A DNA stretch of 64,000 bases from a virus. Its lineage: Duplodnaviria; Caudoviricetes. A program made the translations under genes and the position numbers. The DNA lies in IMG/VR virus record IMGVR_UViG_3300025270_000009, positions 1 through 64,000 of that record. One strand, given 5' to 3'. Below, piece by piece: positions 3,447 through 63,543 of the stretch (its first letter is position 1; every line of letters begins with the position of its first letter). A model generated the notes under the pieces. That model was given only the letters and a program-made list of their open reading frames with translations, was not told the origin of the DNA and searched no databases.

Positions 3447-3538
3447 ATTTTGTATCTCTCTGCTGATTGACGAGAACTATAAAACACTTTCTTAAGAATA
3501 TCTATCTATCCACTGAGATATTTTCCTAAGTAAAGAAA

Positions 3539-6500
3539 TTACTTTCCAACCATTTCTGCTGCCCGGATAAACGCATTTTCTATTTCTTCTGTCAGCTCTG
3601 GCTTCATGTAAATCATGCCTGGACTGACTGTGAATAAATACGTTCTGTCACCGTCTACATCATAAACGTCTTGCCCTGACAGCTCTTCAATTCCACCTTT
3701 AACATCCGGGTGAAATGCACGAACAGTCATTGAGCCGGATAGAATGCAAATAGCAGGGTCCATAATGGCCACTTCTTCTTTTATGATGTCCTTGTACGCT
3801 TTGAGAAGATTCGGATCTATCTCTTCACCAAACTTAGGTTTTTCAGTTTTGAACAAGGTTGTGTAATACACCTCTGCCATTCCAAAACCTGCATTCTTAA
3901 TGGCCGCTTCAACCGTCCCTCGCGTTTTCTTGTCGAGCAACTCACCTTTCTGCAGCTCATAATAGTTTGGCGCATCAACGATCATCATGACGTATGGCCG
4001 CTTACCTGTTTTCGGTACCACTTCAATCGGCACATCGTATTCTTTTTCTTTATCCTGGTACATTTTGAGCAATGTCGGTTCAGCCAGGCCAAAGTTCATC
4101 CTGCGATTAGCCGACACGTCAGCCATAGCAAATGCCCCCATAACTTCTTTCTGAGCCCGAACACGGTCAGCGTGCAACGGATGCTTTTGATCCGGCTCGA
4201 TGTCAGCAAACGCACCAATCGAGTCCAGGTTCTCAATTGCTCGCTTATTAAGTTTGCGACCGTCTACCCTACCCCTTAAGTCTTCTATCGATTCGAAAGG
4301 GCCATTCTTGCGAGCTTCCAGTATTGCTTCAACACTTTTGCCGCTGACGTACTTAACACGGTCGAGAGGTGTGTATAGAACCTCACACTCACGAGCTGTG
4401 TCATAGACTATCTCAAACTTACCCGATGACTTGTTTATGTCGGGCGGCAAAATAATCACCCCATCGTTTGCAGCGTCTCTCGCTACACTGCCGACTTTGT
4501 CATCTGACAGAATCGACATTGATGCTGCGTAAAATACAGCCGGATAGTTCGCCTTTATATAGCCGCACTGATACGAAATTAGTGAGTACGCCACTGCGTG
4601 CGATTTGTTGAATGAGTAGGCAGCAAAGCCTTCAATATCATCCCAAAGCTGCTGAGCGTCTCGCTCAAGCATCCCTGAATCGACACAACCGTTAATGAAC
4701 CGCTCACTCATCGTTGCCATTTTCTCAGCGTCTTTCTTGCCAACTGCTTTACGCAAAATGTCAGCTTGAGCCATAGTGAAGCCAGCCAAGTCTTGCGATA
4801 GCCTCATGATCTGCTCCTGGTAAACCATGACACCAAACGTCTCTTTCAACGCCGGTTCAGCTTTACCGTGAACGTATGCTTCATTCAGCTGACCTGAACG
4901 AATCTTGCAGTACTGCTCTGACAGACCGGCGTCGAGTGGACCCGGACGGTTTAATGCGTTGACCGCAACGATGTCTTCAAAGGTCATTTCGCCGCCTTCA
5001 GCGATGTCTTTTAGCAGTTTTCGAGCATTGCCCCCTTCAAACTGAAAAACCCCCTTAGTGCGACCCTCAGCAAACAGCTGAAGCGTTTTCTTGTCATCAA
5101 GCGGAATCGCATTAAGGTTTAACTTAATATCCCGCTCTTCTAAGAAATCCAGTGCAATGCGCAAAATGTCCAACGTCGACAAGCCTAGCAAGTCGAGCTT
5201 TATCAAGCCCTGGTCTTCTACATTCGACTTATCCCAGTTAACCGTTGCACCTTTTCGAGTTTCGAGAACGGCACGCTCCCTGATCGGAACTCCTGCGACA
5301 ATCAAACCGGCTGCGTGCTGAGACAAGGTTCTTAACTTACCCTGAAGCCCGTCAATTTGTTCGATTATCTCAGGGTACTTCTCTGCGAAACCCTGCATCT
5401 GATCGTCTTGCTCAAGCGCCTCTTCAAGCGTCATTTCATTCAGCTTTTTGGAGACGTTTATCTCCGAGTTACTCAGCCCATGTGTACGACCTAAATCACG
5501 AATCGTTGAAGAGCCACCCAGTTTTGAGTAGTTGCTGATACCGGCTACATATTCTTTACCGAACTTGTCCTCTAAATGCTCCACCACGTTCTGACGACGA
5601 GACGACATAAAGTCCAGGTCGATATCCGGATAGTCGAGACGGTCAGGGTTCAAGAAGCGCTCGAAAATCAGGCCAAAACGAATCGGGTCAACATCAGTAA
5701 TTCCCATTAAATAAGCGACCAGTGAACCCGCCGCTGAACCACGAGCCGGGCCTACCGCAATCTTGTTCTCTTTCGACCAGTTGACTACGTATGAAACGAG
5801 AAGAAAGTAAGGAACGAAGCCCATTTCTTTGATAATGCCAAGCTCATACTTCAAGCGCTCTTTGTAAACCGGCATATCTTCCGCTGACGGCTTATAATCA
5901 AAAACCGGCTTACTGAAACGCAACTGCCAGCCTTCTTTGCACTTGTTAACTAGCTCACCGAACTCATCTTCAGCAAGTTTAGGTAGAGATATCTCCTGAC
6001 GCTCCCACTTGTAATCACAACGCTCATGAAAAGACACGGCGTGCGGCAACAGTCTTTTCAGAAGATCTACGTTGCAAGAAACTTTGAGCTCCTGTGAGCT
6101 CATCAAATAAGCATCCCGGTATTGCGGTATCGGTCTTAGCTCAGATTTAGCCGGAGCTCCTTTGAAAGAAGAGCCGTTAACTATGTAGCTTAAATGGTCT
6201 CGAGTATCGTCCTGACCCTTTTTATACATAGCCGTTCTGGTGATAATCAGTTGAAGACGCTCAGAATCATCGTTCTCAATGAGTTCCAATGCTGCATCAC
6301 ACACCGACTCGAAATAGCCTGTTGGCAGCAATGGCGCCTCAAGATAAAACTCTGGCACTGTATCGACCAAGTTTCTGACAATGTCGGTTGCGTTTGGCAA
6401 CAACAAAGGAGAATTCATGTCATTCGTGGTCACGATGACATTTCCACGACTTGCAACCTTAACGATGTCGTAAAGAGACGTTCTAGGGTGAAAGTAGAAA

Positions 6501-6832
6501 TACTCTTCACTGTTAGCCAGTGAAAGAATTTCAAACAAGTCTTTCATACCCTCATCATTCTTAACGATGATTCGCAACTGGTACATTGGGTTGTGCGCTT
6601 TCTTCTCGCGCAGCTTTGGATCGGCAACAACCGTTACCGATGCGCTTATCACATAGTCCAGGCCAAGCTTGTTGCACTCATCAACAAACTCAGTCATCCC
6701 CGAGACAGTATTGCTGTCAGATAAAAGCGCTACTGGCTTTTCCAACTCTTTTGTCTGTTGAGCGACCTCAGCCGGCTCTAACAGAGCACTTCCGAGAGAG
6801 AAGTGCGTTTGTGCGAACTGATAAACTTTCAT
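3539..6832 (-). CDS. dnaE: DNA polymerase III alpha subunit with C-terminal uracil-DNA glycosylase-like domain
   Basis: N-terminal PHP domain; motifs GPARGSAAGSLVAY, FERFLNPDR, PDIDLDF, HAAG, KLDLLGL, FNKSHA. Confidence 0.95.
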   Translation of the reverse strand: MKVYQFAQTHFSLGSALLEPAEVAQQTKELEKPVALLSDSNTVSGMTEFVDECNKLGLDYVISASVTVVADPKLREKKAHNPMYQLRIIVKNDEGMKDLFEILSLANSEEYFYFHPRTSLYDIVKVASRGNVIVTTNDMNSPLLLPNATDIVRNLVDTVPEFYLEAPLLPTGYFESVCDAALELIENDDSERLQLIITRTAMYKKGQDDTRDHLSYIVNGSSFKGAPAKSELRPIPQYRDAYLMSSQELKVSCNVDLLKRLLPHAVSFHERCDYKWERQEISLPKLAEDEFGELVNKCKEGWQLRFSKPVFDYKPSAEDMPVYKERLKYELGIIKEMGFVPYFLLVSYVVNWSKENKIAVGPARGSAAGSLVAYLMGITDVDPIRFGLIFERFLNPDRLDYPDIDLDFMSSRRQNVVEHLEDKFGKEYVAGISNYSKLGGSSTIRDLGRTHGLSNSEINVSKKLNEMTLEEALEQDDQMQGFAEKYPEIIEQIDGLQGKLRTLSQHAAGLIVAGVPIRERAVLETRKGATVNWDKSNVEDQGLIKLDLLGLSTLDILRIALDFLEERDIKLNLNAIPLDDKKTLQLFAEGRTKGVFQFEGGNARKLLKDIAEGGEMTFEDIVAVNALNRPGPLDAGLSEQYCKIRSGQLNEAYVHGKAEPALKETFGVMVYQEQIMRLSQDLAGFTMAQADILRKAVGKKDAEKMATMSERFINGCVDSGMLERDAQQLWDDIEGFAAYSFNKSHAVAYSLISYQCGYIKANYPAVFYAASMSILSDDKVGSVARDAANDGVIILPPDINKSSGKFEIVYDTARECEVLYTPLDRVKYVSGKSVEAILEARKNGPFESIEDLRGRVDGRKLNKRAIENLDSIGAFADIEPDQKHPLHADRVRAQKEVMGAFAMADVSANRRMNFGLAEPTLLKMYQDKEKEYDVPIEVVPKTGKRPYVMMIVDAPNYYELQKGELLDKKTRGTVEAAIKNAGFGMAEVYYTTLFKTEKPKFGEEIDPNLLKAYKDIIKEEVAIMDPAICILSGSMTVRAFHPDVKGGIEELSGQDVYDVDGDRTYLFTVSPGMIYMKPELTEEIENAFIRAAEMVGK

Positions 6833-7323
6833 AGTAACGTGTATTCCTTGCCATTCTTTTCAATCATGCCGTAGAAGTCGAGCGCCTTTATTGCCGCCGT
6901 AACTTCTGACTGAGCCGTTGTCTGAGCCATGCCCAGGCCTAATGCGTAATCCAATAACTCTGAGCGTGTGAAGCCGCCTGTCTTCAGCATACTTACTGCT
7001 TGCCAAAACACTTTTCTATCTTTGTGTCTCTGACCTGCGCCTAGTATGTCAGCACTTACATACAAATCTTTATCAAAAAGAGAGAGCACAAGCTTCTTAG
7101 GGTGTTTAGCTAATTGATCTAGCTTTTCAGCAAACAGCTCTTTCTGCCGGTTGCTCTCTTCTTTTTTCATTATCTTCTTGTCGTCACTGTCACCGCTAAA
7201 GCTTTGAATGACGCCTTTGACCCGTTCCGAGCACTTATCCTTTATCTCGCACGATTTACAGTAGTCGCTTCTCGGGTCATAACAGGCAGCGTAACCAAAG
7301 CACAGTCTCATACTTAACCCCAA
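6829..7323 (-). CDS. Hypothetical protein with N-terminal Cys cluster and possible C-terminal winged helix
   Basis: CFG..C..C-x2-C-x4-C pattern; overlaps both neighbouring genes. Confidence 0.55.
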   Translation of the reverse strand: MGLSMRLCFGYAACYDPRSDYCKSCEIKDKCSERVKGVIQSFSGDSDDKKIMKKEESNRQKELFAEKLDQLAKHPKKLVLSLFDKDLYVSADILGAGQRHKDRKVFWQAVSMLKTGGFTRSELLDYALGLGMAQTTAQSEVTAAIKALDFYGMIEKNGKEYTLL

Positions 7324-63017: not shown

Positions 63018-63024
63018 TCTTACC

Positions 63025-63357
63025 TCACAGTGTTATTTCTAAAAGTTCAAATTCGAAGCTGTTGGGTGAAATGTGGTATTCAAAACCGAAGCTATCATCC
63101 AGTGCGTTTATCTCTAATGGCTTGAACACCTCCAAAGCGTTACGAGAAAACATTGCCTTGATGTAACCCTTAAGCGTCAGCCCTGCGTCACCCGCTTCTT
63201 CACGCCAGTCTTTCTCCAGGTTTGGAGTGTGCTTCATAAGCCTTACCATAAGCTCGGGCAACGTATCTCTGTCATCGAGATCGGCAGAAAAGGTGTGCTT
63301 GTTCTCCGCATTTTCAATGTCTATCAAAACCAGCGTCTGTTGTGATTTAAGGTTCAT
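63025..63357 (-). CDS. Hypothetical protein
   Basis: Promoter/operator at 63393 and leader motif at 63375. Confidence 0.6.
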   Translation of the reverse strand: MNLKSQQTLVLIDIENAENKHTFSADLDDRDTLPELMVRLMKHTPNLEKDWREEAGDAGLTLKGYIKAMFSRNALEVFKPLEINALDDSFGFEYHISPNSFEFELLEITL

Positions 63358-63543
63358 TACTCGTTCTCTCTTGCTTGCTGAATGTGAGTGTATATTACAA
63401 CACTGAAATAGGCACTCAACAGCTTATCATAAACTATTTACCTCACAGCCGGCTTGGAATAGGAATAATTGTTTAGTCATTCGCTTGAACGCCTTTGTGT
63501 CAGTGTCATAATACACACTCATTCATAAAGAGAGAGAAAAACA

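Follow-up and report, generated by a model that had tools for sequence, protein, structure and literature searches.

The closest described systems are the dispersed repressor sites of bacteriophage P1 and of certain mycobacteriophages. In P1 the C1 repressor has 22 dispersed, asymmetric 17-bp operators, and the late genes are controlled indirectly, via Lpa (PMC8546580). Cluster A mycobacteriophages carry 20-30 asymmetric, oriented stoperators, which co-diverge with the repressor, and some members of the cluster are extrachromosomal and have parA (PMC6550527). We analysed a stretch of 64,000 nucleotides, hereafter the window, which opens a single virus record of 101,852 bp (IMG/VR IMGVR_UViG_3300025270_000009, Caudoviricetes). 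Judging from its genes, the element is a phage-plasmid like those of the SSU5 supercluster and possesses Rep, iterons and ParA. An 18-bp palindrome, TATCTCA-N4-TGAGATA, recurs between its genes, and we think it probable that this dyad is the operator of a phage-encoded, dimeric XRE-type repressor (10326-10739) that keeps almost all of the genome silent while the element persists as a plasmid prophage. What we observe directly is that the sites exist, how many there are, where they lie and that they are dyads, together with the fold and family of the protein and the co-occurrence and co-variation of protein and sites across lineages.

The likeness to P1 lies in the overall plan, a phage-plasmid in which one repressor, with no RecA-cleavable domain, would serve many operators over ~100 kb. 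C1 is inactivated by the antirepressor Coi; an antirepressor is only supposed here. Unlike the candidate repressor, C1 is not XRE-type, its operators are asymmetric and Lpa activates the P1 late promoters, whereas this phage has ~36 palindromic sites placed directly at structural, lysis and replication promoters. No homology of the 10326-10739 protein to P1 C1 was seen. The Cluster A phages L5 and Bxb1 resemble it in having cognate sites genome-wide in short intergenic gaps, with repressor and motif co-diverging between heteroimmune lineages. However, their stoperators are 13-bp, lie mostly off promoters and block elongation, whereas the sites here are dyad-symmetric and mostly fused to a -35 or -10 element. 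The CI proteins of lambda, 434 and P22 share the N-terminal five-helix helix-turn-helix (HTH) fold and a dyad operator with half-sites one helical turn apart over the promoter core, but lambdoid repressors use two or three operator clusters, a transcription cascade and an S24 autocleavage domain. KorA and KorB of IncP plasmids repress many promoters through palindromic operators dispersed over the plasmid. KorB differs in being a ParB homologue, and the ParB-like proteins encoded here are kept in nickie, a palindrome-free relative. The nearest annotated proteins are CYRAN_45 of E. coli phage Cyrano and the other 'transcriptional regulators' of SSU5, pKpn, pMT1 and AB_1, which are homologous to the 10326-10739 protein and adjoin CobT; the CYRAN_45-type dyad is TARGTAA-N4-TTACYTA, against TATCTCA-N4-TGAGATA here. 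No operator or regulon was described for SSU5-like regulators in the full-text literature searched, and priority is uncertain.

Two features of dispersed-operator immunity are present, namely more than 15 copies concentrated between genes and a phage repressor that travels with them, with one exception (the IMG/VR record G008); the asymmetric, oriented site of P1 and L5 is absent. The comparison supports a dispersed-operator immunity regulon that would be functionally like that of P1 C1 or the mycobacteriophage stoperators, but palindromic and promoter-embedded. Judged on sequence, it is distinct from both, with palindromic sites, a putative XRE-type reader and operators fused to the predicted promoter cores of essentially all operons.

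Matches to TATCTCA-N4-TGAGATA with at most 3 mismatches number 19 in the window, compared with 2.67 expected (standard deviation 1.55), and none of 100 dinucleotide shuffles of the window reached 19. A weight matrix run over all 101,852 bp showed that the dispersed sites continue past the window, where ~17 lie at 65172-100947, for a total of ~36. The exact core TAT.T.A-N4-T.A.ATA is found 23 times in the genome; 21 of these lie between genes, as do 34 of the 40 occurrences when one mismatch is allowed, while only 11.6% of the bases are non-coding. The motif is therefore far from equally frequent inside coding sequences, and 35 of the 60 intergenic gaps of at least 40 bp carry a site. The original prediction, made from the window, had counted about 18 sites. 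All 18 listed starts hold a match, 16 of them within 3 mismatches of the consensus, so the sites were real but the total was too low. The palindrome at 47752 is perfect, as is the related TAAGTCA-N4-TGACTTA reported at 24287. The site at 17747 had been called weak and is so; that at 43043 is also weaker, and both keep 9 of the 10 invariant core positions.

The dyad is better written in an 8-2-8 form, TATCTCAG-NN-CTGAGATA, because the first spacer base is mostly G and the last mostly a pyrimidine; arm position 4 and its mirror are free. Across 35 sites there is no variation at arm positions 1, 3, 5 and 7 or at the mirror positions 17 and 18, with positions 2 and 16 varying once. The half-site centres are separated by 11 bp, which places both half-sites on one face of the helix. 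Of 55 non-consensus arm pairs in these sites, 53 break Watson-Crick pairing and 2 are compensated, which argues for a dyad read by protein rather than a hairpin. In the reading direction of the gene the upstream arm carries 25 mismatches and the downstream arm 43. Such inequality would be expected of dimer half-sites, one of them compromised by other constraints, and not of a selected stem. The site itself is dyad-symmetric, and asymmetry is confined to arm degeneracy where promoter hexamers overlap.

The original prediction had put forward the XRE protein as binder, and this is supported by its profile and fold, by homology to CYRAN_45 and by its co-occurrence with the palindromes. The gene and its predicted promoter are:

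10326 to 10739, minus strand: candidate binder, a 137-residue XRE-type HTH protein with recognition helix RNQNNLSMAKKG and a C-terminal helical domain.
10796 to 10846, minus strand: promoter of the regulator gene, TTGACA (10846-10841), a 16-nt spacer and TATACT (10824-10819).

In the family profile 34 of 79 aligned members match Pfam HTH_3, and against PDB the profile matches 8bny, an 'immunity repressor protein' (E 1.4e-4), and also 2kpj. The protein alone gave only chance-level matches to PDB (SRP54, E ~0.4). Its AlphaFold (AF2) model is all-helical, with a predicted local distance difference test (pLDDT) score of 93, and the top fold matches in Foldseek, which are weak (E 0.03-0.2), are Stl, SinR, the N-terminal domain of lambda cI and other XRE proteins; controller C-proteins are among the fold matches. 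On profile and predicted fold we assign the protein to the XRE-type HTH family. Neither Pfam nor the model revealed an S24 autocleavage or peptidase domain. A HMMER search returned 131 relatives, and homologues occur in 826 plasmid records. The closest are 48-80% identical with the same recognition helix, one of them on a 90.7-kb contig. The homologue CYRAN_45 is 35% identical over 98 residues (E 1e-12). In the LF82 lysogen CYRAN_45, annotated 'putative repressor, HTH', is among the genes expressed ~10-fold above the prophage background (PMC9928086).

In the relatives we counted 7-mer arms in near-palindromes without preset motif, genome by genome. Each of the five fetched relatives with a regulator homologue has a single dominant 7-4-7 dyad:

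Aeromonas pKAM376_1: TCAGTAA-N4-TTACTGA, ~28 sites in 100 kb.
Acinetobacter pLUH6011-1: TCAGTCA-N4-TGACTGA.
Klebsiella and E. coli Cyrano: TARGTAA-N4-TTACYTA.
Rhizobium phage RHEph10: AAGTCA-ATAT-TGACTT.

The regulator homologue adjoins CobT in all five. RHEph10 had been picked as a presumed negative and proved to carry both the regulator (E 5e-36) and a dispersed dyad. IMG/VR relatives, fetched via portal alignment, have operators of the TAAGTAA, TAAGTCA/TCAGTCA or TAGGTAG types; for the enterobacterial ones the 21-kb windows gave 3-5 copies against 2-3 in the null, near the noise floor and indicative only. In full-record searches the regulator was found in 7 of 8 longer IMG/VR records (80-113 kb, 73-100% complete by CheckV), and two fragments too short to assess gave no regulator match. 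In the relatives, too, sites precede portal, capsid, tail, CobT and replication genes, in gaps of the kinds occupied here, and the downstream arm has been turned into a -10 element elsewhere too, as in TTACTATaat (Aeromonas) and GACTATact (Acinetobacter). Operators also cluster beside the regulator gene, with 4 in Acinetobacter, 1 in Aeromonas (59 bp upstream) and 3 in IMG/VR record G003. Arm positions 1 (T), 5 (T) and 7 (A) are common to the types of this phage, Aeromonas, Acinetobacter and Klebsiella/Cyrano; TC at arm positions 3-4 belongs to this phage alone among the lineages seen. Set beside the operators, the recognition helices read as follows:

N[AP]N[NI][LI]SLIK: operator TAAGTAA.
NANNLSNIK: operator TAGGTAG.
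xP[NQ][VIM][LV][ST]MIK: operator T[AC]AGTCA.
ASMLSMIK: operator TCAGTAA.
NQNNLSMAK (this phage): operator TATCTCA.

This pattern suggests that the recognition helix tracks the operator type. The converse case is the lytic Pseudomonas phage nickie, which is collinear with this phage and shares 44 proteins with it. It keeps both ParB-like proteins (E 1e-29 and 2e-30) and the 87-residue winged-helix protein (E 2e-7). At 48310-50000 its ligase gene is followed almost directly by CobT, with no regulator, Rep, ParA or iterons in between, the family profile being blank there even at E <=1, and no palindrome rises above noise in nickie, the top count of 3 equalling the null. It looks like a lytic offshoot, or else the plasmid module is an insertion.

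Promoters were predicted around each site with a sigma70 weight matrix and consensus, and a separate consensus scan covered 44-64 kb. The sites in the window are listed below, with the strand where one was assigned.

3503 to 3520, minus strand: operator, TATCTCAGTGGATAGATA in the minus-strand reading, in the gap between dnaE and gene 2919-3446.
7045 to 7062: full-core site TATGTCAGCACTTACATA within open reading frame (ORF) 6829-7323, the dnaE start being 213 bp further downstream; it may be an internal operator and is absent from the earlier list.
8457 to 8474, minus strand: spacer operator in TTGAAT-17-TACTAT, dyad at ~-28 to -11, upstream of CobS-like 7314-8420.
10253 to 10270: weak site with 2 mismatches over the Shine-Dalgarno sequence and ATG of CobT-like 8494-10260; absent from the earlier list.
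17747 to 17764, minus strand: weak operator TATTTCAGTGTTTACTTA upstream of ligase 16357-17697, its downstream arm supplying the -35 TTTACT.
20525 to 20542, minus strand: operator whose downstream arm is the -35 TTGACA, 17 nt from CAGTAT, upstream of gene 20187-20456.
22007 to 22024, minus strand: operator ending TGTAATAt (-10 TAATAT), upstream of Dam methylase 21379-21969.
24287 to 24304: perfect TAAGTCA-N4-TGACTTA, of a different type, inside the lysis cassette (M15 peptidase 23362-23799).
24918 to 24935, minus strand: operator in the spacer of TTGAAT-17-TAGAAT, in a divergent gap.
31549 to 31566, minus strand: operator between the tail J gene and tail-fibre gene 27116-31507.
38328 to 38345, minus strand: operator 3 nt before the ATG of gene 37701-38324; the upstream promoter TTGAAT-16-TATAAT puts the dyad at ~+5 to +22.
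43043 to 43060, minus strand: weak operator TATCTAAGTGGCTACATA upstream of gene 42661-42999.
44845 to 44862, minus strand: operator whose downstream arm is the -35 TTGACA, 17 nt from GAAAAT.
47752 to 47769: perfect palindrome between the scaffold-like gene and the major capsid gene, upstream of the latter.
50406 to 50423, minus strand: operator over the -35 of the region's best sigma70 match, TTGACA-16-TAGAAT (11/12), upstream of portal.
52856 to 52873, minus strand: operator upstream of the 87-residue winged-helix gene 52536-52799.
55815 to 55832: single operator in a 79-bp divergent gap, over the -35 of minus-strand TTGAGA-17-TATACT.
58103 to 58120: operator within the plus-strand promoter TTTACA-17-GATACT (58094-58122) of an ORF-free unit.
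61145 to 61162, minus strand: operator in the spacer and -10 of TTGATC-16-TAATAT.
62540 to 62557, minus strand: operator in the spacer and -10 of TTGCTC-16-TAATAT.
63393 to 63410, minus strand: operator in the spacer and -10 of TTGAGT-16-TAATAT, with leader CATTCAGCAA 8 nt later.

The dyads fall into four registers relative to the predicted promoters. In the first, the spacer and -10 (-28 to -8) are covered at 8457, 24918, 31549, 61145, 62540, 63393, 65172, 88255 and 95968; a TTGNNN -35 stands 3 nt before the dyad and the end of the downstream arm supplies the -10, as TGTAATAt at 61145, 62540, 63393 and 65172 and as TACTAT, TAGAAT and TAGTAT at 8457, 24918 and 88255. In the second, at ~-17 to +1, at least 8 early-region promoters beyond the window carry an extended -10, TGtCAWAAT, inside the upstream arm; their conserved unit consists of a terminator-like hairpin with cTTGnnnGCCT, a 16-nt spacer and TATGTCAWAATTGARATA, followed by the leader CATTCAGCAA. 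A few further sites of this class have a weaker -35. The third lies over the -35, at 17747 (TTTACT), 20525, 44845 and 50406 (TTGACA, with a -10 at 16-17 nt) and 55815 (TTGAGA), and the fourth, at ~+5 to +22, holds 38328 only. In the separate scan three of the four best matches (50413, 55822 and 44852) overlap operators, and plus-strand promoters abut 55815, where the operator lies just downstream of the helicase-gene promoter TTGACC-17-TAAGAT, and enclose 58103.

It had been proposed that arm variants build promoter elements on the minus strand. For the TTGACA arms this held at 20525, 44845 and 50406, each with a -10 at 16-17 bp, and failed at 38328, where there is a better promoter upstream. 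For the TAATAT arms it held, with a TTGNNN -35 at 16 bp, at 61145, 62540 and 63393 and also at 65172; 22007 has only a poor -35. Overall the register ranges from -45 to +22, with ordinary -35 hexamers at many sites. Activators cannot act from -17 to +1 or +5 to +22, and these registers therefore fit repression; the variability of register likewise points to a repressor and away from an activator site of fixed geometry. The activator site of the Lpa type in P1 is an inverted repeat at a fixed distance upstream of the -10, in place of the -35. Such a site was considered for the dyad and rejected on the variable register and the many ordinary -35 hexamers.

From the sites, the protein and their joint distribution we infer binding, the sign of regulation, promoter activity and a lysogenic role. 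A dimer of the XRE protein would bind each dyad, and the ~36 operators would lie within the cores of host sigma70-type promoters, where the bound repressor may occlude RNA polymerase at the -35, at the spacer plus -10 or at the start site, or may block it just downstream. The operons silenced in this way would be those for replication, nucleotide metabolism, structural and virion proteins, lysis and early accessory functions, together with at least one ORF-free unit. The regulator-Rep-ParA module, in which the weight-matrix scan found no canonical or strong operator, would stay expressed; an imperfect 7-3-7 dyad, TGTCTCG-AAT-TGAGATT (10812-10796), lies at ~+1 to +17 of the regulator promoter. 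As the protein has no autocleavage domain, induction would need an antirepressor or similar factor, and derepression may also follow from loss of the repressor. The original idea of one regulator over replication, structural and accessory promoters, in the manner of P1 C1, thus gains support from the dyad nature of the sites, their overlap with predicted promoters and the phyletic co-occurrence.

The same sites and the same protein could also serve a different purpose. The XRE protein may be a dual or lytic-phase regulator, resembling Cro, a controller C-protein or CI acting at PRM, that sets timing and not lysogeny; promoters with the dyad next to the -35 or across the whole spacer would be activated and the others repressed. 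The fold matches controller C-proteins and lambda cI, both of which activate and repress, and sites at -45 to -28 or -28 to -11 could allow contact with sigma region 4. Yet 8-11 sites lie at -17 to +1 and one at +5 to +22, positions that permit repression only, and although 22007 and some other sites are without a good -35, the spacer-filling dyads have ordinary TTGNNN hexamers at 16-17 bp. The homologue CYRAN_45 is moreover expressed in a lysogen, and nickie, a lytic relative, has neither the regulator nor the sites. We regard a dual or lytic-phase role as rather unlikely.

A second possibility, which we also consider improbable, is that something else reads the dyad: the 87-residue winged-helix protein (52536-52799), a KorB-like ParB protein (54430-55780) or a host factor. 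Global regulons of the KorB type, built on scattered palindromes, have precedent. An operator precedes the winged-helix gene (52856), and the ParB-like genes adjoin the operator at 55815, the divergent gap that holds the only perfect site of the Aeromonas element. However, nickie keeps the winged-helix protein and both ParB-like proteins and has no dispersed palindrome, while tblastn finds neither family in the 100 kb examined of Cyrano, which has palindromes. The winged-helix protein, which had been named alongside the XRE protein for binding assays, is disfavoured because nickie retains it, and a KorB/ParB-type reader was rejected on the evidence of both phages. A host factor would not explain why the operator types of close lineages change in step with the helix of the phage XRE protein.

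Many of the sites might instead act as roadblocks to elongating RNA polymerase, much as stoperators do, with the promoter overlaps partly coincidental. The sites at 3503, 38328, 43043, 47752 and 52856 either have no good overlapping promoter or lie downstream of one, and some sites sit in short gaps between co-directional genes, like the L5 stoperators (PMC6550527). As a general account we find this doubtful, since most sites coincide with correctly spaced -35 or -10 hexamers, which explain the arm degeneracy, and a palindromic site differs from a stoperator, which is asymmetric and oriented. Roadblock action at some of the sites is compatible with an XRE repressor that occludes promoters at the others.

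A reading with no protein site, as an RNA or DNA hairpin (terminator, processing site or repetitive extragenic palindrome (REP)-like element) or as the promoter of a phage sigma factor or RNA polymerase, is very improbable: 47752 does extend to a 10-bp stem with a T-rich tail and RHEph10 does encode a sigma factor between CobS and DnaE, but only 2 of the 55 deviating pairs are compensated, most sites have no T-run after them, the corresponding ORF here (6829-7323) has no sigma domain, and an 18-mer found in four registers relative to the -10 makes no promoter consensus. An intrinsic terminator or REP-like repeat was rejected on the lack of compensation (2 against 53 of 55), and a sigma-factor promoter on the missing domain in 6829-7323.

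Several observations weigh against a genome-wide XRE repressor. The 10326-10739 protein alone has no Pfam or PHROG match, and its own promoter has only the degenerate dyad, in contrast to the clear sites beside the regulator genes of Aeromonas and Acinetobacter. Record G008 (106 kb, 98% complete) gave no match to the regulator profile, though TAAGTAA-like sites are weakly present near its portal gene. The co-variation of helix and operator is confounded by shared descent, and Cyrano and Klebsiella differ in the helix (ANN against PNI) with the same operator arms; nickie is the only control lineage that lacks the regulator. All of the promoters are consensus predictions only. The consensus scan of 44-64 kb, which was stringent, found 17 promoter-like strings against 22.3 in shuffles, which is no excess, and no convincing promoter was found at 3503, 43043, 47752 and 52856, of which 47752 could act as a terminator-like hairpin instead. 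The sequencing runs listed included no RNA run containing this phage.

If the XRE repressor is nevertheless the reader of these sites, its reach may extend to the whole SSU5 supercluster, a generalisation that we advance as a tentative possibility. Essentially all promoters of a ~100-kb genome would then be under the direct control of one small XRE repressor, through operators built into their cores and with no cascade. Immunity specificity would change when ~30-40 operators and one or two helix residues are exchanged in concert, as in a change from Leu to Asn accompanying that from TAAGTAA to TAGGTAG, and a lytic offshoot such as nickie would be what is left once the repressor-Rep-Par module and every operator have been lost. 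Hundreds of phage-plasmids from Klebsiella, E. coli, Salmonella, Yersinia (pMT1) and Acinetobacter fall in the supercluster, which also takes in marine and rhizobial relatives. Clinical Enterobacterales and Acinetobacter often carry SSU5-like phage-plasmids, and the regulator homologue occurs on Yersinia pestis plasmids. In the literature searched we found no description of how SSU5-like elements stay silent as plasmids, and the single-repressor model offers a concrete, testable account. Were it correct, heteroimmunity groups could be predicted from operator type and recognition helix, the difference of the lytic relatives would be accounted for, and the lineages would provide natural orthogonal repressor-operator pairs with evolved promoter architectures.

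The assignment of the element rests on gene content and order. In the window annotation the minus strand holds almost every gene of the phage, and genes were called from PHROG and Pfam matches and local tblastn against annotated relatives.

3539 to 6832: DnaE-type polymerase (PHROG, Pfam and tblastn).
48777 to 50378: portal (PHROG, Pfam and tblastn).
11040 to 13340, minus strand: operator-free plasmid module with ~10 iterons, Rep, an 85-residue ORF and ParA.
11040 to 11400: iterons, ~10 direct repeats CGTACTTTRRGTGACG, just downstream of the Rep gene and ParA.
11376 to 12356, minus strand: Rep, RPA family.
12615 to 13340, minus strand: ParA.

The region of iterons, Rep and ParA is likely the plasmid origin. 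The window also encodes CobS- and CobT-like proteins, primase, helicase, ligase, terminase, major capsid, tape measure and tail J proteins, a lysis cassette and two proteins with ParB-N domains (54430-55780). Gene order is collinear with that of the SSU5-supercluster members Aeromonas pKAM376_1, Acinetobacter pLUH6011-1, Klebsiella pIncFI-L132 and E. coli phage Cyrano, and the helicase, ParB-like, terminase, portal, major capsid, tail, lysis, primase, ligase, CobT, CobS, DnaE and Nrd genes of the shared order are all found, together with a maintenance module. Identity to the named members is ~50% for portal and 33-43% for DnaE. Scans of viral contigs with the single portal protein and with a DNA pattern of operator plus leader gave no match, and a DnaE alignment scan of genome contigs recovered only chromosomal DnaE at 31-43% identity.

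The leader CATTCAGCAA occurs in 21 copies on the minus strand and 1 on the plus strand, at 69635-100947 beyond the window and at 8445, 17719, 20486, 62501 and 63384 within it. The copies stand 0-11 nt past an operator and 15-25 nt ahead of a start codon, probably at or near transcript 5' ends. At the portal gene (50378-50413) and gene 44470-44817 (44817-44852) the predicted -10 ends 6-7 nt before the ATG, so the predicted transcripts would be leaderless or nearly so.

The site at 47752, the sole perfect operator in the window, forms a 10-bp stem, AGGTATCTCA...TGAGATACCT (47749-47772), followed by a T-rich tail, and is for this reason flagged by a terminator scan; it may also be a terminator or attenuator. 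The TAAGTCA type at 24287 is the operator type of RHEph10 and several IMG/VR relatives and not that of this phage, which could reflect module exchange, cross-immunity between lineages or chance. In a strain ~2.5% divergent, carried on a 95-kb contig of a marine metagenome from 2024, 410 other letters stand at a joint at 61142-61228, beside the 61145 operator; the differences from this strain fill a table of 695 rows. Cyrano carries a second dispersed palindrome, AAAACAA-N-TTGTTTT, in ~11-18 copies (for example at 29258, 80548 and 93113). These copies follow closely after GATAAT -10 elements in the leaders of early genes, and nothing equivalent occurs in this phage, where the early promoters use the main operator. 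Finally, the 89-residue ORF at 20187-20456, upstream of the helicase gene, has weak LSM/Hfq matches (E 0.002 and 0.009), and an annotated Hfq stands at the matching position in the Aeromonas and Acinetobacter relatives.

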